The position numbers and the translations under genes were made by a program. DNA of 64,000 nucleotides. Source: an uncultured Acidobacteriota bacterium. Lineage in GTDB: Bacteria; Acidobacteriota; Vicinamibacteria; Fen-336. Positions 49,008 to 59,793 of the stretch are shown here, piece after piece (position 1 is the first letter of the stretch; the number at the start of each line of letters is the position of its first letter). The DNA lies in the NCBI GenBank assembly GCA_963720545.1, contig OY970399.1, positions 224,001 through 288,000 on the forward strand. Direction: 5' to 3'. The notes below the pieces were generated by a model. That model did not search any database and had not been told where the DNA came from. It saw nothing but the letters and a program-made list of their open reading frames with translations.

Positions 49008-49694
49008 TTAGCTGGCTTTTTTGAGACTGGAGCGTCGAAACTTGTCCCATGGGATTCGGGTGGCGTGGACGATGTCCCAGAAGCCATTGGTGAGGCCGTA
49101 GCCCGTTTCCACCCCGACCTGGCTGTGGTGGAACCAATGATGGCGCTTGATGTAGCGCCAGTACTTGGAGCGGAAGTCGTAGAAGTGCACCGATTGGTGC
49201 ACCCACTCCTCGCCGATGTAGGCCACCATGAGGCCCGCCAGGAAGGTTGGCGCGGTGGCGACGGGTGCCAGGAAGCTGAGCGCCGCCACCGGCCCCAGGG
49301 CGGGCAGGGTGTCCTTCAGGGTGCCGTTGATGTGGTTGCCGTCCCAGGGCCGGGCATGGTGCTCATAGTGCAGGTGGTCGAAAAGGTCGTGACTCACTTT
49401 TCGCATACCGGCACCCTTCGGAAAACGCCCGTGGAGGATGAAGCGGTGGACCAGGTATTCGACCCAGGTCCAGGCGGCCGCACCAGCCGCGAACCAGGCG
49501 ATGGGCTGCCACCATGCGGACGCGCTGCGAAACGCCAGGAAGAGCACGATCAGCCCGTAACCGAGGTACGTGACGGTTACCGGGTACAACCGGCGGCGCG
49601 CACGGCGAGCTTCACCTTTCCAGTCGATTCCGACCGGAAACTTCGGGGGTGGCAGGCCCAATTCGGATTTGTGATTCGAGCTAGGTCCGTTCAC
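49008..49694 (-). CDS. Fatty acid hydroxylase/sterol desaturase family di-metal membrane enzyme (FA2H/Scs7-like)
   Basis: His boxes EYLVHRFILH, HLHYEHH, EEWVHQSVH, RHHWFHH; YGLT..FWD; start uncertain (GTG 49694 or an upstream ATG). Confidence 0.85.
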   Translation of the reverse strand: MNGPSSNHKSELGLPPPKFPVGIDWKGEARRARRRLYPVTVTYLGYGLIVLFLAFRSASAWWQPIAWFAAGAAAWTWVEYLVHRFILHGRFPKGAGMRKVSHDLFDHLHYEHHARPWDGNHINGTLKDTLPALGPVAALSFLAPVATAPTFLAGLMVAYIGEEWVHQSVHFYDFRSKYWRYIKRHHWFHHSQVGVETGYGLTNGFWDIVHATRIPWDKFRRSSLKKAS

Positions 49695-49875
49695 GGCTGT
49701 GATCCAGTATACGTCAACGGGCGGAGTCAAGATTCCCATTTCGCTCATAAAACGATGACAAAACTGCACCCTTTCGCCGCCAACGGGCGGGCTGATAAGA
49801 TGTTGCGGCTCAGGCGGCAGTCGTCGTGCGTGTAGCGAGTTCGGCCGCTTGAGGCCGGACGACCAGGGAGGGTGT

Positions 49876-51174
49876 ATGGACGCGGCCCAAAAGGCAGCGC
49901 AGAAGGAGAACGACACGGACCGCACAACGTTCGCCGACTACGACCACAGCAACTTCTACTACGGCGCGGGGGACGACCCCCTGAACCTGCTCACCCCGTT
50001 CGCCGAGTGGTATGAAGAGGCGCTGCCCAACGGGTACTACCTGTATTCCGAGCCGCTGCACACGGCGCCAGGAACCGAAGTCACGGTCGAAAGCCGCAAG
50101 AACGGCGAAAAGCTCTCGCTCATCAACTTCGCGTCGTACAACTATCTGGGCATCTCCTACCGCGAGGAAGTCAAGGAAGCGGCCCGCAAGGCGGTCGACA
50201 AGTATGGCCTCGGCGCCTCCGGCTCGCCGATCCTGAGCGGCACCATGGACGTCCACGAGGAGCTGGCGACCGCGGTCGCGCGCTTCAAGGACAAGGAAGC
50301 GGCGATCCTCTTTCCCACCGGCTACAGCGCCAACGTCGGTTTCATTTCGGCGCTGATGCGGCCGGGCGACAACATCCTCCTCGACCAGTACTCGCACGCC
50401 TCGATCGTCGACGGCGCGATCCTCGCGAAGTCGAAGACCACCTTCTTCCGCCACAACAACCCGCTCGACCTGGAGCGCAAGCTGAACGGCTGCAAGGGCA
50501 AGAAGCTGGTGGTCGTGGAAGGCGTCTACTCGATGGACGGCGACGTCTGCCTGCTGCCCGAGATCGTCGAGGTCGCCAAGCGCCACGGCGCCCGCATCCT
50601 CATCGACGAGGCGCACTCCACGTTCCTGTTCGGTCCCAACGGCCGCGGCGTCGCGGAGCACTTCGGCCTCGACGGCGAGATCGACTTCCACCTCGGCACC
50701 TTCTCGAAGAGCCTCGGCGGCCAGGGCGGCTTCGTCTGCGGCTCGCAGAAGCTCATCGACTACGTCAACGCCTTCGGCCGCTCGCGCTTCTTCTCGTGCA
50801 ACCTGGCGCCAATGCTCGCCGCGGGGCTCACCGCCGGCATCGAGATCGTCGAGAACGAGCCGGAGCTGCGCGCGCGTCTGTGGGGCAATGTCGCATTCCT
50901 GCGCCGCCGCTTCGCCGAAGAGGGCATCGACATCGGCAAGTCCAACTCGCAGGTGATGCCGGTGATGGTGAACAACGACCAGAAAGTGTTCGCGGTCGCC
51001 GAGAAGATCCAGGAACGCGGCTTGTTCCTGCAGCCGGTCACGTATCCCGCGGTGCCGAAGCACAAGTCGCGCCTGCGGATCTCCGTTTCGGCGGCACACT
51101 CTGAACAACAGCTCGAGAGGGCGGTGGGCATCATCAAGAGTGTGCTGGTCGAAGAGGGGATATGCCGGCGCTGA
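49876..51174 (+). CDS. spt: PLP-dependent alpha-oxoamine synthase, serine palmitoyltransferase-like
   Basis: NFASYNYLG, TGYSAN, SHASIVDG, EGVYSMDGD, DEAHS, PLP-Lys motif GTFSKSLG (SPT-type rather than KBL-type); lipid gene context. Confidence 0.75.
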   Translation: MDAAQKAAQKENDTDRTTFADYDHSNFYYGAGDDPLNLLTPFAEWYEEALPNGYYLYSEPLHTAPGTEVTVESRKNGEKLSLINFASYNYLGISYREEVKEAARKAVDKYGLGASGSPILSGTMDVHEELATAVARFKDKEAAILFPTGYSANVGFISALMRPGDNILLDQYSHASIVDGAILAKSKTTFFRHNNPLDLERKLNGCKGKKLVVVEGVYSMDGDVCLLPEIVEVAKRHGARILIDEAHSTFLFGPNGRGVAEHFGLDGEIDFHLGTFSKSLGGQGGFVCGSQKLIDYVNAFGRSRFFSCNLAPMLAAGLTAGIEIVENEPELRARLWGNVAFLRRRFAEEGIDIGKSNSQVMPVMVNNDQKVFAVAEKIQERGLFLQPVTYPAVPKHKSRLRISVSAAHSEQQLERAVGIIKSVLVEEGICRR

Positions 51175-51827
51175 CCCGATACGGATATTCCAACGCCATC
51201 AGCGGCTTCTTCGAGTTTCCAACCGAAAACGCGCGGCAGATACTGCCGGCGCACCTCGAGCCGGTGGAGCTGCACCACGGCACCAGCGTCTTCTCCATGA
51301 CCTGCTTCGACTTCACCGAGAGCATGGTGGGGTCGTACGGTGAAGTGGTGATGTCGGTGATCGTGGCGCCGCTTGTGAAACCGGGCGAACGCCTGCCGAA
51401 GTCGGCGTTCTACCCGTACCTTGTCGCGACCACCACGGCGGCGGCGCGCGAGCATGCGATCGAGCGCTGGCACCTGCCGCACTGGATGGAAGACGTGGCG
51501 ATGAGCTTCGACAACGCCGCGGGCATGATGACGTCACGGGTGACACTCGACGGCGAGCCGGTGGCCGAGCTCAGCATCAGCGAGCATCAGTGGCATCCGG
51601 TGTCGCATCTCTACCAGTCGTTCATGAAGGACGACTCGGGCGCTTACCTCGCCAACATCCTCATGGAAGGCCAGCAGAGCGAGCACGAGGACGAGCGCGG
51701 CAAGCTGACGCTGCACGACCATCCGTTCAACCGCTCGCTGATGATCGCCGACGTCTACGAGACGCCGTTCCGCGAGTTGTGGATGCGCGACGGGCGGCAG
51801 ACGTTCGATCCGCTGGTGACGCTCTAG
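51162..51827 (+). CDS. Acetoacetate decarboxylase (ADC)-fold protein of unknown function
   Basis: ARQILPAHLEP, FDFTESMVGSYGEV and AAREHAIERWHLP resemble ADC-superfamily patterns; overlaps the spt 3' end by 13 nt. Confidence 0.6.
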   Translation: MPALTRYGYSNAISGFFEFPTENARQILPAHLEPVELHHGTSVFSMTCFDFTESMVGSYGEVVMSVIVAPLVKPGERLPKSAFYPYLVATTTAAAREHAIERWHLPHWMEDVAMSFDNAAGMMTSRVTLDGEPVAELSISEHQWHPVSHLYQSFMKDDSGAYLANILMEGQQSEHEDERGKLTLHDHPFNRSLMIADVYETPFRELWMRDGRQTFDPLVTL

Positions 51828-51842
51828 AACGAGCGGCGGCTC

Positions 51843-52760
51843 GTGCCCGAACCGGTCTACGTCGTCTTCAACCCCCACTCGGGCCGCGGTCGCGGCGCAG
51901 CATTGGTCGAGCCGGTGCTCGCCGCGCTGCGCAGAGACGGCGATGGCGCCATGGTCGAGCATGGGCTCACGCAGAAGGCCGGCGACGAGGCAGTGCTGGC
52001 ACGCGAGGCGCTGCGCCGCGGCTTTCGCACCATCGTGGCGGTCGGCGGTGACGGCACCTGGAGCAACACCGCGCAGGCCCTGATCGGCGCCGACACCGAG
52101 GTGCGCCTGGGACTGGTCCCCGGCGGCACCGGCTGCGACTTCGCGCGCACGCTCGGCATCCCGCAGCAGGACGTCGCCGCGTGCGCCGCCATCCTGCGCG
52201 CCGGCCACACGCGCCTCGTGGACGTCGGCCGCGTCGAGGACCGCTATTTCCTCAACATCGTCGGCTTCGGCTACGACGTCGCGGTGCTCGAGGACTCGTG
52301 GACCGTGCCCTGGCTCGCCGGCAGCGCGCTCTACACCTACTGCGCGGTGAAACAGCTCGGCCGCTTTCCAGGTTTCGAAGTCGCGCTTCGCGACGGCGAC
52401 GGCGCCGCGGCGCAGGCACCGGCACGCCGGCTGTTGATGCTGATCGTCGCCAACGCGCGAGTCTTTGGCGGCGGCTTCCGCATCGCGCCGCAGGCCGAAC
52501 TCGAGGATGGCCTGCTCGACGCCGTCGCGATCGGCGACGCGCCTTTTTTCGGGCGGCTGGCGCTGATGCGCCAGCTGATGCGCGGCACGCACGGCGCCAA
52601 CCCCGCGGTCTCGGTCGCGCAAGGCGCGTCGTTCCGCCTCGCCTTCGCGGCGCCGCCGGCTTATGAGACCGACGGGGAATGGCAGCGCGCCGCGAGCGCC
52701 GAACTCACCGTCGCCGCCGTGCCGCGCGCGCTGCGCGTGCTGGCGCCCCCGGGCAACTGA
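51843..52760 (+). CDS. Diacylglycerol/sphingosine/ceramide kinase family protein
   Basis: NPHSG, VGGDGT, PGGTGCDFAR, GGGFRIAP, TDGE. Confidence 0.9.
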   Translation: MPEPVYVVFNPHSGRGRGAALVEPVLAALRRDGDGAMVEHGLTQKAGDEAVLAREALRRGFRTIVAVGGDGTWSNTAQALIGADTEVRLGLVPGGTGCDFARTLGIPQQDVAACAAILRAGHTRLVDVGRVEDRYFLNIVGFGYDVAVLEDSWTVPWLAGSALYTYCAVKQLGRFPGFEVALRDGDGAAAQAPARRLLMLIVANARVFGGGFRIAPQAELEDGLLDAVAIGDAPFFGRLALMRQLMRGTHGANPAVSVAQGASFRLAFAAPPAYETDGEWQRAASAELTVAAVPRALRVLAPPGN

Positions 52761-52780
52761 GCGGGGCAGCGGCGGTGTCC

Positions 52781-53557
52781 ATGATCGTCCAGTTCGTCCG
52801 CGGCGTCCGCAGCCTGCTCGCGGTGCTTGGCGTGGCCTTCCTGTTCGCGGTGCCCGGCACGCTCGTGATGTACCTGTACGTGTTGCCGCTATCCCTGTCG
52901 CGCAAGCGGCGTTTCGCGGTCGGCTCCTGGTTCCTCAAATGGATGGCGCACTGGATCCTGCGCATCCTCGGCTGGGGCGGCGCCCGTTTCGAGCGCCGTG
53001 GTGTCCTGCCAACCACCGAGCCGAGTTACGTGGTGATGAACCACCAGTCGCAGCTCGACATCTGCACCGCGGCCGAGATGGGCGAGCCGTACACGCCGAT
53101 CTTCGTGCCGCGCGCCCGCTACGCGCGCTTCATCCCGCTCATCTCCAAGACCATCCGCATGATCGGCTGCCCGATCGTCGACCCGCAGCGCGACGTGCGC
53201 GGCGCCTTGCGCGCGATGAAAAAGGCGGCGGTCGAGCTGCGCGGCGCGTTGCTGGTGTTTCCCGAGGGGCACCGCAGCCGCGACGGCGAGGTGCTGCCGT
53301 TTCGCGCCCGCGGCATGGTGTCGCTGCTGCAGACGCGACGCCTGCCGGTTTACGTGATCGCGAACGATGGCCTGTGGCGCGCGCGCCGCTTCGTGGACGT
53401 GCTGTTCCACGGCGCCGCGCTGCACGGCGAGACCGAACTGCTCGGCCCCTTCCTGCCGCCCGAGGACGACGCCGCGCTCGACGCGTTCGTCGCGACGCTG
53501 CGCGAGCAGCTGGTGGCGAGCGTCCTCGCGATGCGCACGCGCCGGCGCGCGGCGTGA
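52781..53557 (+). CDS. PlsC-family (lysophospholipid) acyltransferase
   Basis: HX4D motif NHQSQLD, FPEGHRS, N-terminal TM helix. Confidence 0.88.
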   Translation: MIVQFVRGVRSLLAVLGVAFLFAVPGTLVMYLYVLPLSLSRKRRFAVGSWFLKWMAHWILRILGWGGARFERRGVLPTTEPSYVVMNHQSQLDICTAAEMGEPYTPIFVPRARYARFIPLISKTIRMIGCPIVDPQRDVRGALRAMKKAAVELRGALLVFPEGHRSRDGEVLPFRARGMVSLLQTRRLPVYVIANDGLWRARRFVDVLFHGAALHGETELLGPFLPPEDDAALDAFVATLREQLVASVLAMRTRRRAA

Positions 53558-54537
53558 AGCTCGGCGACGCGGTCCGCGCGCACGTCACGGACACTGCCGG
53601 CCTCGACCCGGTTGCGGCGCGGCTCGCCGCGCTTTGCGCCGAGAGCGGCGGCGACGCCGTCAGCGCGGTGCTCTTCTACGGCTCGCGCAAGACCGGTGCC
53701 GCGCCCGACCCGTGGAGCGCCTACGACTTCTTCGTGCTCACGAGCGACGACCGGGCCTTCTATCGCGAAATGAAGGCACGCGGCCAGCTGCGCCGCTCGC
53801 CCGGCCTGGTCGCAGCCCTGAACGGCATGCTGCCCCCGAACCAGGTCTCGGTGCGCGACGGCGGCGGCGGCGCGGCACCCTTCGCCAAGTGCTCGGTGAT
53901 CCGGCTCGACACTCTCGAAGAGGAAACCTCCCCGCGACGGCGCGACCATTTCTGCGCCGGGCGCTTGTTCCAGCCCACGACCCTCGCGTTCGCGCGCGAC
54001 GCCACCGCCGCGGCGCGGGTGGCCGAGTGCGCCGTAGCCGCGCACCGCGCCACCTGGGAGTGGGTGCGGCCGTGGCTGCCGCCCGCCTTCGACGCGCGCG
54101 AGTACTGCCTCACGGCGCTGCGGGTGTCGCTCGGCCGCGAGATCCGGCCCGAGCCCTCGGGGCGCGCCGATGCGCTGTTCGCCGCACAGCGCGACTACCT
54201 GGTGCCCGTTTACCAGTCGCTCCTCGAAGAACTCGCAGCGAGCGGCGCTCTGGCGCCGGCGGGTGAGGGCCGGTTCGCGGCGACATCACCGGTTGAGCGC
54301 AGCGAACGCCGCCGGATCGAGGCATACTTTCGCCGGTCGAAGGCCCGCGCCACCACGCGCTGGTTCAAGTACATGTTCACGTTCGACGACTGGCTGGAGT
54401 ACATCGTGAGGAAGGCCGAGCGGCACGGCGGCGAAAAAGTCGAGCTGAGCGCACGCGAGCGGCGCTGGCCGCTCGTGTTCCTGTGGCCGCGTGTCTTCGA
54501 CTATCTGAAGCACAAGGATCGGCGGAAGCGCCCGTGA
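53554..54537 (+). CDS. Pol-beta-fold nucleotidyltransferase, putative lipid-phosphate cytidylyltransferase (Tam41/CpgC-like)
   Basis: VLFYGS...AYDFFVL NTase signature, LPPNQ, AGRLFQP, FTFDDWLEYI.RKAERH; GTG overlaps the plsC stop. Confidence 0.65.
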   Translation: MKLGDAVRAHVTDTAGLDPVAARLAALCAESGGDAVSAVLFYGSRKTGAAPDPWSAYDFFVLTSDDRAFYREMKARGQLRRSPGLVAALNGMLPPNQVSVRDGGGGAAPFAKCSVIRLDTLEEETSPRRRDHFCAGRLFQPTTLAFARDATAAARVAECAVAAHRATWEWVRPWLPPAFDAREYCLTALRVSLGREIRPEPSGRADALFAAQRDYLVPVYQSLLEELAASGALAPAGEGRFAATSPVERSERRRIEAYFRRSKARATTRWFKYMFTFDDWLEYIVRKAERHGGEKVELSARERRWPLVFLWPRVFDYLKHKDRRKRP

Positions 54538-55277
54538 CCGGAAGTCTCGCGGCACTCCTCGCGATCCTGGCAGGGCTGTTCGTCTCGATGGCCGTGTACG
54601 CCGCCGCGGGCCGCAGGCCCGACCCCGACGCCAGCCGCAAGGGCACGCAGTTTTTGCTCGGCGCGGGCAACTTCATCGTCCACTGGTTCATGTGGCTCAT
54701 CATGCCCATCGAGCGCCTGGCGCTCGCACTGGCGCTCGGGCCGACCTTCTTCAACTTCGCCGGCCTCGCCTTTGGCGCGCTTTCCGGTGTGCTGCTTGCG
54801 ACCGGGCGGCTGGAAGCGGGCGGCTGGGCGATCGCCGCCGGCGGCGTCTGCGACATCCTCGACGGCCGCATCGCGCGCGCCCGCAACATCGCCTCGCCGT
54901 TCGGCAAGTTCCTCGACGCCTGCTTCGACCGCTTCGTCGAGAGCTTCGCGTTCCTCGGCCTCGTCTGGTACTACGCCGGCCGGCCGCACGCCGCCTTCGC
55001 GGCCGCGGCCGCCATCTGCGGCTCGCTGCTGGTGAGCTACGCGCAGGCGCGCGGCGAGACGGTGAACGTCTCGGGCTCGGGCGGCCTGATGCAGCGCGGC
55101 GAGCGCCTCGCCCTCACGTGCTTCGCATGCCTCTTCGACCGGCCACTCAGCGCCTGGCTCAGCCAGCCAACAGGCACGGTGCTCTACTGGGTTCTGGTCG
55201 TGATCGCCGCTGGCTCCTTCGCAACCGCCGCGTACCGCACCGCGTGGCTCGCCCGCGAACTGCAGCGGCGGGAATAG
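54534..55277 (+). CDS. CDP-alcohol phosphatidyltransferase
   Basis: Canonical DILDGRIAR..SPFGKFLDACFDR; SYAQARGE, GLMQRGER (PgsA/PIP-synthase-like). Confidence 0.9.
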   Translation: MTGSLAALLAILAGLFVSMAVYAAAGRRPDPDASRKGTQFLLGAGNFIVHWFMWLIMPIERLALALALGPTFFNFAGLAFGALSGVLLATGRLEAGGWAIAAGGVCDILDGRIARARNIASPFGKFLDACFDRFVESFAFLGLVWYYAGRPHAAFAAAAAICGSLLVSYAQARGETVNVSGSGGLMQRGERLALTCFACLFDRPLSAWLSQPTGTVLYWVLVVIAAGSFATAAYRTAWLARELQRRE

Positions 55278-55282
55278 CCAGA

Positions 55283-56275
55283 ATGGCAGGGGCAGGCTTG
55301 CTGTTGTCGTTACTGCTCTCCGGGGCAGGCGAGGCTGGCGACGAAACCGCGCGCAAGACGGCTTACGCCGACCGGGCGCTGGCGGCAAGTGCGTACCCGC
55401 AGGCTATCGAAGCGCTCGAATGGCTCGACAAGCGTGCGAAGGGCACGAACGTCGCCGTGCGCCTCAAGCTGGCGAGCGCATACCTTGGCGCCGAAAAGTT
55501 CGAGCGCGCCGACAAGCTGGCAGGCTGGGTGCAGCAGAACGCGACCGACGACCACCTGCGGGCCCAGGCCTGGCTCGTCTCCGGCATGGCCCTCGGCGGC
55601 ACCTTGTCGTCCGAGAAGAGCCGCAGCGCGGCGGAAGCGGCGTTCCGCGCCGCGATCGCGGCCGATCCGGCGTACGGTGCCGCGCACTATCGCCTGGCGC
55701 AGGTGCTGTTCGCTGCGAGCCGGAACGACGACGGCTTGAAGAGCCTGCAGGACGCGGTGGACGTGCTGCCCGCCGGCCACGCGCTCGCCACCGCCTCACA
55801 TCGGGTCCTCGACAAGCCGCGCCTCGCGGGCAGGAACTTGCTGCCGGCGTTCACGGCCACGACTCTCGACGGCGGAACGTTCAGTTCCAGCGCCCTCGAC
55901 GGCAAGGTCGTGGTGCTCGATTTCTGGGCCACCTGGTGCGGGCCATGCGTGAAAGCGCTCCCGACGGTCAAGAGGCTGGCACGCGCCCATGCAGCGGACG
56001 ACATGGTCCTCATCAGCGTGAGCGTCGACGGTGACGTCAAGAAGGCGCGCAAGTTCGCAGCGAAGAACGGGATGGACTGGCCGCAGCTCTGGGAACACGG
56101 CGAGCAAGGCCACCTGGCGCGGGCGTTCGCGATCGAGGCGATCCCGACTTATGTCTTCATCGATCGTGACGGTGTCATTGTGTCGAAGTTCACCGGACCC
56201 GACGACGAAACCGCGCTGCGCAGCCAGCTCGATCGCCTTCTGGCGCTCCTGCTGAAGCGGGAGCCGGTGCAATAA
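55283..56275 (+). CDS. Exported TPR-containing TlpA/ResA-like thioredoxin
   Basis: Signal peptide, TPR-like helices, DFWATWCGPC, IPT cis-Pro loop. Confidence 0.88.
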   Translation: MAGAGLLLSLLLSGAGEAGDETARKTAYADRALAASAYPQAIEALEWLDKRAKGTNVAVRLKLASAYLGAEKFERADKLAGWVQQNATDDHLRAQAWLVSGMALGGTLSSEKSRSAAEAAFRAAIAADPAYGAAHYRLAQVLFAASRNDDGLKSLQDAVDVLPAGHALATASHRVLDKPRLAGRNLLPAFTATTLDGGTFSSSALDGKVVVLDFWATWCGPCVKALPTVKRLARAHAADDMVLISVSVDGDVKKARKFAAKNGMDWPQLWEHGEQGHLARAFAIEAIPTYVFIDRDGVIVSKFTGPDDETALRSQLDRLLALLLKREPVQ

Positions 56276-57807: not shown

Positions 57808-59793
57808 CTAGCGGCGCCAGCCCGCGTTCAGGAGCCGGGTGCGCGCGTCGCCGATGACGCCGTTCAGCGCGGCGTTGTCGATGTCGATCGGGTAGAGCTC
57901 CAGGAAGCGCGCGCCGTTGCGGATGCCGCGGTCGAGCGCGTCGCGCAGCACCGTCGGCGCCTGGCTGGCGCCGTACGGGTGGCCGCCGTTCATGCGGCCG
58001 GTCGGGTCGTTGCTGACCGACCAGAGCATCTGATAGCCGGCGTCCACCTGCGCCGCGGCCGCCGCCACGTCGAGCGAATGCCAGGTGGTGGAAAGCCCGT
58101 TGTTCTGCGCCATGAACTGGTTGACGCGGACGTTGGCCGCGCCGCCCTGGTCCGGCCCGTACACGTCCTTGCCATAGGCGACGATCTGGTCGGCGATGAT
58201 GCCGTCACCGCCGCTCGAGCTCTGGAAGACGTTGCCGTCGTCGTCGATCGCCGGGAAGTGATTCGGGCCCAGAGCAATCGTCACCTTCTGGAACGGGAAC
58301 GAGTCGGAGAAGGCGCGCATGAGCTGCTGCCAGGCGCCGCGCACCTTGGCGCGCGTGTAGCCGTCGCGGGCGCCGCCGGCATCGCGCACGTCGAGCCAGT
58401 TGTTGACGTCGGGGTCGTCGAAGGGCAGGCCGGCTTCCGCCGACTTGTGCTGGATGCCGGTCACCTTCACCTGCACCAGCGCCTCGCGTGAGGAGTAGCG
58501 GCGGCCGGCCGCTGCGATCAGCGCCTTCCAGCGGTCGAGGTAGACGGGATCCCAGGGCACCGGGATCCTGACGGTTTCGTTGCCGTCGCGGAACGTGAAC
58601 TCGACGGCGCCGTCCGCGAACACCCAGTTGGGCGTTGACACGCCCGCGGAGATGCACAGCGAGACGCGCTTGCCCGCGGCTTCGGCGCGCGCGAAATGGT
58701 CGTCGAGCATGGTCCAGTCGTAGCTGCCGCGCTGCGGCTCGAGCGTGCTCCAGCGGACCCGCAGGCTGACGCCGTCGACGCGCGGGCTGGCGAGCGAGGT
58801 GTCGGACAGCCAGCCGTCGTTGTCGGACAGCGAGTAGATCCCGTTCGGCTGGCGGAACGAGGGCGCCGCGGCCAGGGTCGCCCAGGTGTTCACCACCTCG
58901 GTGCCGCCGTCGGGATCGGTGATCGTCATGGTGATGTTCTTGCGGCCGGGAGCGACCCCCGCGGCGTACGTGTGGGTCGGGCTGAGGCCCGACTGCGGCT
59001 CGGTGCCGTCACCGAAGTTCCACGAAACGTCGAGGTGGGCGAGGTCGGCCGGGCTGGCATCGTCGATGGTGCCGAGCACCTGCATCGGCCGGCCGTTGGC
59101 GGCGACGTACGGCCCGCCGGCGTGGCCGGTGGGCGCCTCGTTGCCGACGTGGATCGAGCGTGTGATCCGGGTCGTGGCGCCGTCCTTGTCGGTCACGTCC
59201 ATCGCGACCGTGTAGGTGCCGCTGTCGGTTGGCGTGAAGATGAAGCGCGGCGAGGTGCTGCCGGCGCGGCCGGTGCTGCTCGGACCGCCGAGCACCACCC
59301 AGTCGCGGCGCAGGTGGCCGCGGTCGTCGCGGCCCGCATCGCTGACAGTGCTGTTGACCGTGATCTCGACGCCCTCGGCGCTCTGCGCGGGTGCGCCCGT
59401 GATGTTGCCCCCGGGTGCGACGTTCTGGATGGTGATGGTGCGCGGCGCGCTTTCGACACGGCGCACCTGGCTGCCGTTGCGCAGCTCGGTGACCCGGAAT
59501 CCCACGGGGTAGTTGCCGTTGTCGAAGAACAGGTTGGCAGGCTCGAGGCTGCGCTTTTCCCAGCCGCCTCCTTGGCCGAAGTTCCACTCGTACACGTAGG
59601 TGTAGTCCCTGCGCTTGCCGTCGACGGTTGCGGTGAAGACCGGGGAGGAGCCCTCACGATAAGGCGCCTGGGTCCGGATCGTGAACGACGCGGTCAGCGC
59701 CGGGTCGGCAGCGGCAGCCGGCACGGAAATGAATGTGGCGCTTGCGAGGAGGCAGACAAAGCACGACAGCATCAGCGAGGAGGGAAGTTTCAC
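57808..59793 (-). CDS. Secreted PKD-domain + TIM-barrel glycoside hydrolase (GH-A clan-like)
   Basis: Signal peptide; PKD motifs (WNFGQG, WNFGDGT..HTY, VTDKDG); catalytic-like domain RWSTLEP..GSYDW, PVPWDP. Confidence 0.72.
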   Translation of the reverse strand: MKLPSSLMLSCFVCLLASATFISVPAAAADPALTASFTIRTQAPYREGSSPVFTATVDGKRRDYTYVYEWNFGQGGGWEKRSLEPANLFFDNGNYPVGFRVTELRNGSQVRRVESAPRTITIQNVAPGGNITGAPAQSAEGVEITVNSTVSDAGRDDRGHLRRDWVVLGGPSSTGRAGSTSPRFIFTPTDSGTYTVAMDVTDKDGATTRITRSIHVGNEAPTGHAGGPYVAANGRPMQVLGTIDDASPADLAHLDVSWNFGDGTEPQSGLSPTHTYAAGVAPGRKNITMTITDPDGGTEVVNTWATLAAAPSFRQPNGIYSLSDNDGWLSDTSLASPRVDGVSLRVRWSTLEPQRGSYDWTMLDDHFARAEAAGKRVSLCISAGVSTPNWVFADGAVEFTFRDGNETVRIPVPWDPVYLDRWKALIAAAGRRYSSREALVQVKVTGIQHKSAEAGLPFDDPDVNNWLDVRDAGGARDGYTRAKVRGAWQQLMRAFSDSFPFQKVTIALGPNHFPAIDDDGNVFQSSSGGDGIIADQIVAYGKDVYGPDQGGAANVRVNQFMAQNNGLSTTWHSLDVAAAAAQVDAGYQMLWSVSNDPTGRMNGGHPYGASQAPTVLRDALDRGIRNGARFLELYPIDIDNAALNGVIGDARTRLLNAGWRR

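Follow-up and report, generated by a model that had tools for sequence, protein, structure and literature searches.

The stretch of DNA analysed here, referred to as the window, spans 64,000 nucleotides (nt) of contig OY970399.1 from an uncultured Acidobacteriota bacterium of the class Vicinamibacteria, and contains a run of six co-directional genes that may encode a route to a complex sphingolipid. The genes specify, in order, a pyridoxal phosphate (PLP)-dependent alpha-oxoamine synthase (AOS), a protein with the acetoacetate decarboxylase (ADC) fold, a lipid kinase, a PlsC-fold acyltransferase (the cassette PlsC), a nucleotidyltransferase (NTase) and a CDP-alcohol phosphotransferase, and are collectively termed the cassette (Table 1; cassette positions are in window coordinates). 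The host genome is a single 4.09 Mb contig that is 94.8% complete. An earlier reading of the DNA from its letters alone (the original prediction) comprised these six genes and a divergent hydroxylase, and all seven open reading frames were found where it had placed them. Its description of six genes that overlap or lie about 20 nt or less apart is borne out by intergenic gaps of -13, +15, +20, -4 and -4 nt along the plus strand from 49876 to 55277. Third-position guanine-plus-cytosine content is high in all six cassette genes (0.89-0.93).

Table 1. Genes of the cassette and its immediate neighbours in the window.
Feature	Position	Strand	Family matches and remarks
PLP-dependent AOS	49876..51174	+	PF00155; cassette-specific clade; N-terminal extension
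ADC-fold protein	51162..51827	+	weak match to PF06314 (20.7 bits; cut-off 29.8); fold borne out by structure match
YegS/DAGK-family lipid kinase	51843..52760	+	PF00781, PF19279; TIGR00147 above cut-off; GGDGT motif
PlsC-fold acyltransferase, cassette-specific type	52781..53557	+	PF01553
Pol-beta-type NTase	53554..54537	+	without a Pfam match of its own; CpgC-position homologue, distantly Tam41-like
CDP-alcohol phosphotransferase	54534..55277	+	closest to phosphatidylinositol-phosphate and archaetidylinositol-phosphate synthases
Scs7/FA2H-like His-box hydroxylase	49008..49748	-	PF04116; probable ATG start; divergent neighbour
Tetratricopeptide repeat (TPR) and thioredoxin-like (TlpA/ResA-type, WCGPC) gene	55283-56275	+	begins 5 nt 3′ of the cassette

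The six genes are a real and conserved cassette that is found in one order of Vicinamibacteria, in some Gemmatimonadota and in Candidatus (Ca.) Eisenbacteria. Locus counts refer to the best 80 kept of 283 genome stretches that encode a relative of the AOS, and consist of 28 loci of the Vicinamibacteria type and 52 that are mostly from Gemmatimonadota or Ca. Eisenbacteria. All six genes occur together in 55 of the 80 (a hand count, with many of the other loci stopping at a contig edge), and the joint conservation that the original prediction had named as a test is thereby seen in three phyla. The ADC-fold gene lies directly 3′ of the AOS gene in 80/80 loci. The gene order of the window is kept in the Vicinamibacteria loci, and in Gemmatimonadota and Eisenbacteria the cassette is arranged as two divergent halves, AOS-ADC-kinase and PlsC-NTase-CDP-alcohol transferase. 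The earlier suggestion that gene order mirrors reaction order is weakened by this split and partly upheld by the constant internal order of each half. All genomes in these surveys are metagenome-assembled genomes (MAGs), and absences therefore count as "not found". A full-length cassette AOS was found in 49 of 55 relatives of the same order and in none of five genomes of other orders, and homologues with a named source come from Gemmatimonadota, Acidobacteriota or Eisenbacteria only, the remainder being from unnamed bacteria. The ADC-fold gene is present in 3 of 301 sampled Acidobacteriota, all three from the host's family, and in 14 of 151 sampled Gemmatimonadota. In the latter sample, where only 14-19 candidates per genome were scored for PlsC and the NTase, the cassette PlsC was found in 11 of the 14 ADC-positive and none of the 137 ADC-negative genomes, and the cassette NTase in 13 of the 151, 12 of these being ADC-positive. 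A plasmid search found no cassette.

Variants of the locus were also encountered. Two genomes (G513 and G517) carry second, stand-alone pairs of AOS and ADC-fold genes (L177:5813-7875 and L178:7806-9928) with no kinase or head-group genes nearby. Genome G011 (98% complete) has a cassette reduced to the AOS, the ADC-fold protein and the CDP-alcohol transferase (L179:6623-9434), and encodes canonical Spt and bCerS elsewhere. In 18 of the 28 Vicinamibacteria loci a radical SAM gene (L029:7064-8104, plus strand, and neighbours) lies between parB and a cassette-linked short-chain dehydrogenase/reductase (SDR) gene, an interval that in relatives also contains genes for a methyltransferase, an ABC permease and a membrane protein. 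These upstream genes, present in 14-18 of the 28 loci, were rejected as cassette members as they were found neither in the other phyla nor in the host locus, and no radical SAM orthologue was found in the host genome.

The AOS is a probable serine:acyl transferase. Its best match among solved structures in the PDB is the Spt of S. multivorum (303 bits), with AONS/Kbl at 248, a cysteate transferase at 212 and E. coli BioF at 189. His174, Asp244, His247, Lys278 and Arg401 are invariant in 53 homologues aligned to S. multivorum Spt, and would supply the PLP lysine, stacking histidine, Asp/His pair and carboxylate-binding arginine that the fold requires. In a tree of 27 rows, whose reference sequences come from annotated regions of plasmids and of E. 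coli and whose deep forks are unresolved, the cassette synthases form a clade of their own (support 100/99) apart from Spt (seven members, six of them bCerS-linked and one a Spt-like protein of Prevotella), PigH, BioF, Kbl and ALAS. The original prediction had taken the enzyme for an established Spt from its GTFSKS motif, a claim that is not supported, given the separate clade and scores below the Spt cut-offs. The motif is also present in one BioF of the tree, so it is not diagnostic of Spt and was discarded as proof. A lone AOS on conjugative Bacteroides plasmids (L112:5974-7209), the top plasmid match at 39%, is its weakly supported, long-branch sister, and in genome G034 another AOS, at 43-45% to the cassette clade, has SDR and epimerase-like genes around it (L188:2750-9418).

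The ADC-fold protein is a probable partner subunit of the synthase. Its structure model (pLDDT 95.7) superposes on acetoacetate decarboxylase with Z 22.2 and a root-mean-square deviation of 2.8 over 201 residues (Foldseek E 4e-11). His107 replaces the Schiff-base lysine and is histidine in at least 90% of 55 homologues; distant WGYPK-type members have a lysine in this column, which we take to be the catalytic one. Glu61 is invariant. A modelled complex of two AOS copies (residues 19-410) with the ADC-fold protein reached 0.73 against 0.00 for the best control. Of 157 solved complexes, 116 attain this mark, as do 2 of 215 mismatched pairs; these figures apply only roughly here. At least 94% of contacts were shared between runs, with a partner pLDDT of at least 87. 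To the modelled interface the AOS contributes its clade-specific N-terminal extension and the ADC-fold protein 6 of its 17 invariant residues, and conservation there is only modestly above average (0.74 against 0.65; on the AOS 0.78 against 0.74). PDB searches with the AOS and ADC-fold alignments found no comparable complex, and the profile search with the ADC-fold alignment returned nothing useful. The protein shares with members of the ADC superfamily (ADC, MppR, Sbi_00515, Swit_4259) a common fold (Z 19-22) and the YxE glutamate. In contrast to them it has histidine for the Schiff-base lysine, is only 12-14% identical, always follows an AOS, even in the two stand-alone pairs, and is modelled as a partner. 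It thus looks like a subunit of the synthase and not a separate step, a point that goes beyond the original prediction, and it might instead act catalytically on an aminoketone.

With regard to the head group, the kinase is proposed to be a long-chain-base or ceramide 1-kinase, both lipids being putative substrates. The NTase is homologous over its full length to the gene that lies between spt and the kinase in a Caulobacter-type cluster of Roseomonas, at the position of CpgC (hhalign 99.8%, 280 columns, 31% identity), in keeping with the earlier claim that the head-group enzymes parallel those of Caulobacter. Its 13 plasmid matches are all homologues at 84-90% coverage, 11 of them in Roseomonas. 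Gly43-Ser44 and Asp58 are invariant, a Pol-beta-type GS...D motif that it shares with the Tam41/Mmp37 CDP-diacylglycerol synthase. Links to that family are weak: Tam41_Mmp37 (PF09139) matches 2 of 46 relatives with a best E of 0.0018, and the Atlas leads are Tam41_Mmp37 (11% of a cluster) and Adenyl_transf. A PDB profile search with the NTase alignment reached no solved Tam41 and nothing useful, and the single-sequence structure model had a pLDDT of 41, too low to use. The Tam41 links suggest CDP activation, and the NTase is accordingly proposed as a CTP:lipid-phosphate cytidylyltransferase.

The CDP-alcohol transferase scores below cut-off with NF040950 (109 bits) and NF045883 (96 bits), and its best PDB matches are phosphatidylinositol phosphate (PIP) synthases. 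The four aspartates of DxxDG...DxxxD, Ser168, Arg188 and Arg191 are invariant in 61 homologues; the position of the acceptor-site lysine is occupied by arginine in 55 and by glutamine in six, and by glutamine in the host enzyme. The Ser/Lys/Arg acceptor-site residues of PIP synthases presumably bind inositol phosphate. A gene for myo-inositol-phosphate synthase (MIPS) is present, unlinked, in the host genome and in 5/5 tested cassette-bearing Gemmatimonadota, a count that covers cassette genomes only. The head group is probably inositol phosphate, which adds to what had been predicted. At 7-8 loci of Eisenbacteria the cassette is followed by genes for a GT4 glycosyltransferase and for a PatA/LpxL-like acyltransferase (L054:13111-14253, L095:7728-8612), a pair reminiscent of phosphatidylinositol-mannoside genes that would be compatible with an inositol lipid.

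The HX4D motif is intact in ACYLTRANSFERASE (the cassette PlsC), with His88-X4-Asp93 invariant; the blocks NHQSQLD and FPEGHR are present and the profile match to a solved PlsC has E 5e-23. The host genome has five more genes of the PlsC family and four more for CDP-alcohol transferases, and the cassette copies are therefore a dedicated set. The cassette PlsC is proposed to add a second acyl chain in place of bCerS. Elsewhere in the genome, unlinked to the cassette, is an apparent 943-aa fusion of a carrier domain with acyl-AMP ligase and PlsC domains (G000:C1:3678903-3681734, minus strand). A reductase is carried inside the cassette in most relatives, which the original prediction had not included: among the 28 Vicinamibacteria loci, 23 have an SDR gene upstream of the AOS gene, and among the 52 others 32 have a gene for a Zn-dependent medium-chain dehydrogenase/reductase (MDR) 3′ of the kinase gene.

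The distribution of the canonical ceramide genes bears on the nature of the product. A bCerS profile was built from ten plasmid-borne genes that had been recognised by their annotation and their place in the clusters, and the Caulobacter protein was not among its sources; its best score in the host genome is 15 bits, against 212-439 for held-out members, and no bCerS was found there. The best CerR-like scores are 171 and 158 bits, both unlinked, against 214-274 for held-out members. The earlier statement that bCerS and CerR are lacking thus extends from the cluster to the whole genome for bCerS, and for CerR is left in doubt by the 171-bit candidate. The bCerS profile matches 13 of 60 relatives and 10 of 50 cassette-bearing Gemmatimonadota/Eisenbacteria genomes. 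Canonical Spt was found in none of the 14 cassette carriers among sampled Gemmatimonadota and in 88 of the 137 others (86 of 135 when G458 and G498 are omitted), with a Fisher p of 2e-6 that is overstated because kin are not independent.

Five Gemmatimonadota genomes have bCerS without a canonical-Spt match. Three of these lack the cassette and on inspection have a Spt-like gene beside bCerS; the remaining two (G480 and G524) are cassette genomes in which no canonical Spt was found. Strong bCerS matches also occur in eight further cassette genomes (G004, which is 100% complete, G013, G015, G017, G030, G364, G385 and G386), where the only other AOS found is Kbl or BioF and where CerR adjoins bCerS in seven. 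This count omits G034, with its further AOS of uncertain type, and G005, which is 68% complete. As the substrate of bCerS is a 3-keto long-chain base (PMC11087976), the simplest reading of ten cassette genomes that keep bCerS without a canonical Spt is that the cassette AOS supplies that substrate. Co-occurrence and mutual exclusion favour a sphingoid product.

A link between PlsC and bCerS is also apparent. The four of the 50 Gemmatimonadota/Eisenbacteria cassette genomes without a cassette PlsC all have a strong bCerS, and a bCerS match was found in six (two strong, four weaker) of the 46 with PlsC. Three same-order relatives have the cassette AOS and lack PlsC, of which G005 and G011 have a strong bCerS and G021 has none. 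Overall, bCerS was found in 6 of 10 PlsC-less cassette genomes. Loss of PlsC in the presence of bCerS hints at functional overlap and is far from proof of it.

Aside from the cassette, canonical Spt was found in 88 of the 151 Gemmatimonadota, with bCerS in all 88, so that ordinary ceramide synthesis looks common in the phylum; no paper reporting this was found. Complete Caulobacter-type or core sphingolipid clusters are present on records listed as plasmids from Roseomonas, Diaphorobacter (IncP, conjugative) and Klebsiella michiganensis (L110, L114, L124), and the canonical pathway can therefore be mobile. LpxC is present in the host, leaving loss of lipid A without support as a reason for the lipid.

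The reading that we judge rather probable is that the cassette provides a second route to a complex sphingolipid, one that does without bCerS, follows the logic of phosphatidic acid synthesis and ends in an inositol-phosphate head group. Genes, conservation, folds, residues and co-occurrence are observed, and from them we infer each of its reaction steps. The AOS and its ADC-fold subunit, the complex being a model, would form a 3-keto long-chain base by condensing a small amino acid, in all likelihood serine, with a long-chain acyl thioester. Reduction of the 3-keto group would follow, by the SDR in most Vicinamibacteria cassettes and by the Zn-dependent MDR in most of those of Gemmatimonadota and Eisenbacteria; the host's own reductase may be unlinked. 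The kinase would then form the 1-phosphate, an analogue of lysophosphatidic acid (lyso-PA), and the dedicated PlsC would add the second chain, possibly on the C2 amine, to give ceramide-1-phosphate, which is the weakest step. The CpgC/Tam41-like enzyme would convert this to CDP-ceramide, and the PIP-synthase-like enzyme would join CDP-ceramide with myo-inositol-1-phosphate made by the unlinked MIPS. A more far-reaching version holds that a heteromeric Spt with an ADC-fold subunit, a PlsC-fold ceramide synthase acting on a sphingoid-1-phosphate, and the direct joining of CDP-ceramide to inositol phosphate were independently assembled and replace Spt-bCerS-CerR in abundant uncultured lineages of soil and sediment. 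This is possible, if doubtful.

Several observations weigh against this bCerS-independent route. PlsC enzymes are O-acyltransferases, and no precedent for N-acylation by PlsC was found. The cassette PlsC and a strong bCerS are both missing from the cassette genomes G021 (84% complete), G456, G486 and G513. The AOS passed no curated model, its scores against three Spt models being 369 (SerpalmtaseCFB, the best NCBIfam match), 334 and 267 bits for cut-offs of 640, 500 and 670, and it lies outside the bCerS-linked Spt clade (94/96, open). The invariant residues Pro118 (arginine in Spt), Phe250 and Cys308 (alanine in Spt) are unusual, and its substrates may therefore differ from those of Spt. Neither the SDR nor the MDR is present in the host locus, and no reductase was found within about 9 kb of the cassette in four Gemmatimonadota with large contigs. 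The host's nearest SDR (C1:3031489), examined as a candidate for a displaced cassette reductase, is 38-48% identical to cassette SDRs, whose internal range is 45-98%. The cassette coexists with the canonical pathway in G379, G380, G384, G001 and G011, of which G379, G380 and G011 have a lost or degraded cassette PlsC. The genomes are MAGs, and an absence from them means only that a gene was not found. Finally, CpgC acts after ceramide-1-phosphate in Caulobacter by a mechanism that is not known (PMC11324152, PMC12275187).

In the way it works the cassette resembles the ceramide-(di)phosphoglycerate pathway of Caulobacter crescentus, but it falls outside the canonical Spt-bCerS-CerR system. The Caulobacter pathway comprises Spt, an acyl carrier protein (ACP), AasR, bCerS, CerR, CpgB, CpgC, CpgA and CpgD (PMC11324152, PMC12275187), and in both systems an oxoamine synthase is clustered with a DAGK-fold kinase, a CpgC-family NTase and a CDP-alcohol transferase. 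Unlike Caulobacter, the host lacks bCerS, and the cassette has no ACP, acyl-ACP synthetase, CerR or CpgD; CpgD is not among the conserved neighbours of the 80 loci and has only partial, unlinked matches in the host genome. The cassette synthase is of another clade and is joined by the ADC-fold partner and PlsC, and its CDP-alcohol transferase is PIP-synthase-like, with only weak similarity to the gene at the CpgA position (E 1e-5 over 102 residues). The inositol sphingolipid genes of Bacteroides thetaiotaomicron include the MIPS gene BT_1526 together with BT_1523, BT_1525 and BT_1522; loss of the CDP-alcohol transferase BT_1523 abolishes PI-DAG as well as PI-DHC, and only PI-DHC requires BT_1522 (PMC9246714). 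Points in common are MIPS, an enzyme of the PIP-synthase type and the inositol-phosphate head group that is proposed for the cassette. The cassette differs in that no head-group transferase or phosphatase is conserved in it; its lipid kinase and lipid cytidylyltransferase suggest instead that the sphingolipid is activated directly with CDP. A literature search, in which coverage of subscription papers was mostly lacking, found no paper describing the cassette.

Among other explanations, the cassette might consist of two separate arms, one in which PlsC acts with the Tam41-like enzyme and the PIP synthase to make ordinary phosphatidylinositol phosphate from lyso-PA, and one in which the AOS, ADC-fold protein, reductase and kinase make a long-chain base phosphate; a Bacteroides-like transferase encoded elsewhere might join them. 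The cassettes of Gemmatimonadota and Eisenbacteria split into exactly these divergent halves, G456 and G486 retain the synthase arm only, and the separate roles of BT_1523 and BT_1522 (PMC9246714) would fit such an arrangement. Against this, no extra transferase is conserved in the 80 loci, the NTase is homologous to a gene needed after ceramide-1-phosphate in Caulobacter, the host genome has its other PlsC-family genes and a probable CdsA (by position), and loss of the cassette PlsC tends to accompany bCerS. Two arms are on balance rather unlikely.

It is quite unlikely that the cassette builds on a different backbone. In that case the AOS would use glycine or serine, the ADC-fold partner would deaminate or isomerise the aminoketone, and reduction would yield a long-chain 1,2-diol (or an O-acylated aminodiol), from which the kinase, an ordinary O-acylating PlsC, the cytidylyltransferase and the PIP synthase would produce a Thermomicrobium-type diol-phosphoinositol lipid. 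The chemistry of PlsC suits O-acylation beside a phosphate, the AOS clade is odd, Glu61 of the ADC fold is invariant, and Thermomicrobium membranes consist of long-chain 1,2-diols whose pathway is not known (PMC2615216). However, the ten cassette genomes with bCerS and no canonical Spt found suggest a product that bears an amine, the ADC-fold protein lacks the Schiff-base lysine and has 6 of its 17 invariant residues in the modelled interface, and the named homologues, from searches that did not extend to Thermomicrobium genomes, come only from Gemmatimonadota, Acidobacteriota and Eisenbacteria.

A sulfonolipid pathway from cysteate is highly improbable. Cysteate acyltransferase, too, is an oxoamine synthase and has this fold (the 212-bit match), and an SDR often accompanies the AOS, but a sulfonate at C1 can be neither phosphorylated nor CDP-activated, and the invariant Cys308 of the cassette clade aligns with Lys281 of SulA, a residue that is alanine in Spt (PMC9304779). 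The equivalent position is threonine in the BioF of E. coli and Azospirillum and in ALAS, and asparagine in E. coli Kbl. Cys308 thus excludes the AOS from SulA without establishing it as a Spt, and the preference for serine over cysteate in the original prediction is sustained. That the AOS is a BioF or Kbl beside lipid genes by chance is very improbable: the bioF model scores 358 bits, near the best Spt model, and databases label homologues BioF or Kbl, but the clade is apart from both (the outcome named beforehand as refuting was clustering with them), its linkage to lipid genes is kept across three phyla, and the host encodes a Kbl of its own (60% to that of E. coli), no bioD match and a bioB match of only 54 residues. 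The identities BioF, Kbl, ALAS, PigH and SulA were rejected on the separate clade, the separate Kbl and Cys308.

Surveys of bacterial sphingolipid producers rest on membership of the Spt clade together with bCerS and CerR, and one treats synthases outside the Spt clade as uninvolved and yet notes possible non-homologous replacements (PMC11334938). If the bCerS-independent route to an inositol sphingolipid is correct, such surveys overlook an entire order of Acidobacteriota as well as parts of two further phyla, and the cassette would bring a ceramide synthase of a new fold, a bacterial oxoamine synthase with an accessory subunit, and a compact setting in which to ask what CpgC does (PMC12275187). 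Even if the product is a diol lipid, the genes would be candidates for a lipid class without a known pathway.

The divergent His-box hydroxylase had been included in the predicted pathway. The gene is present, with a PF04116 match and a weak match to yeast Scs7 (E 3e-5), but its membership did not stand: it lies beside the cassette in the host genome only (0/80 loci), and the homologues found in 32 of 60 relatives are never at cassette coordinates. It was rejected as a cassette member on these grounds and, though no conserved part of the cassette, may modify its product.

Linkage of the TPR and thioredoxin-like gene to the cassette is not kept among the 80 loci. Further along the window, 57808-59793 (minus strand) encodes a protein of 661 aa that looks secreted and has PKD-like repeats and perhaps a glycoside-hydrolase domain (judged by eye), adjoining genes that a family search assigned to a PKD lipoprotein and a phosphodiesterase. 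In the host genome at large, ARAGORN called a tRNA-SeC and a tRNA-Lys that runs across the contig ends (G000:C1:4089371-71), the latter suggesting a closed circular assembly.

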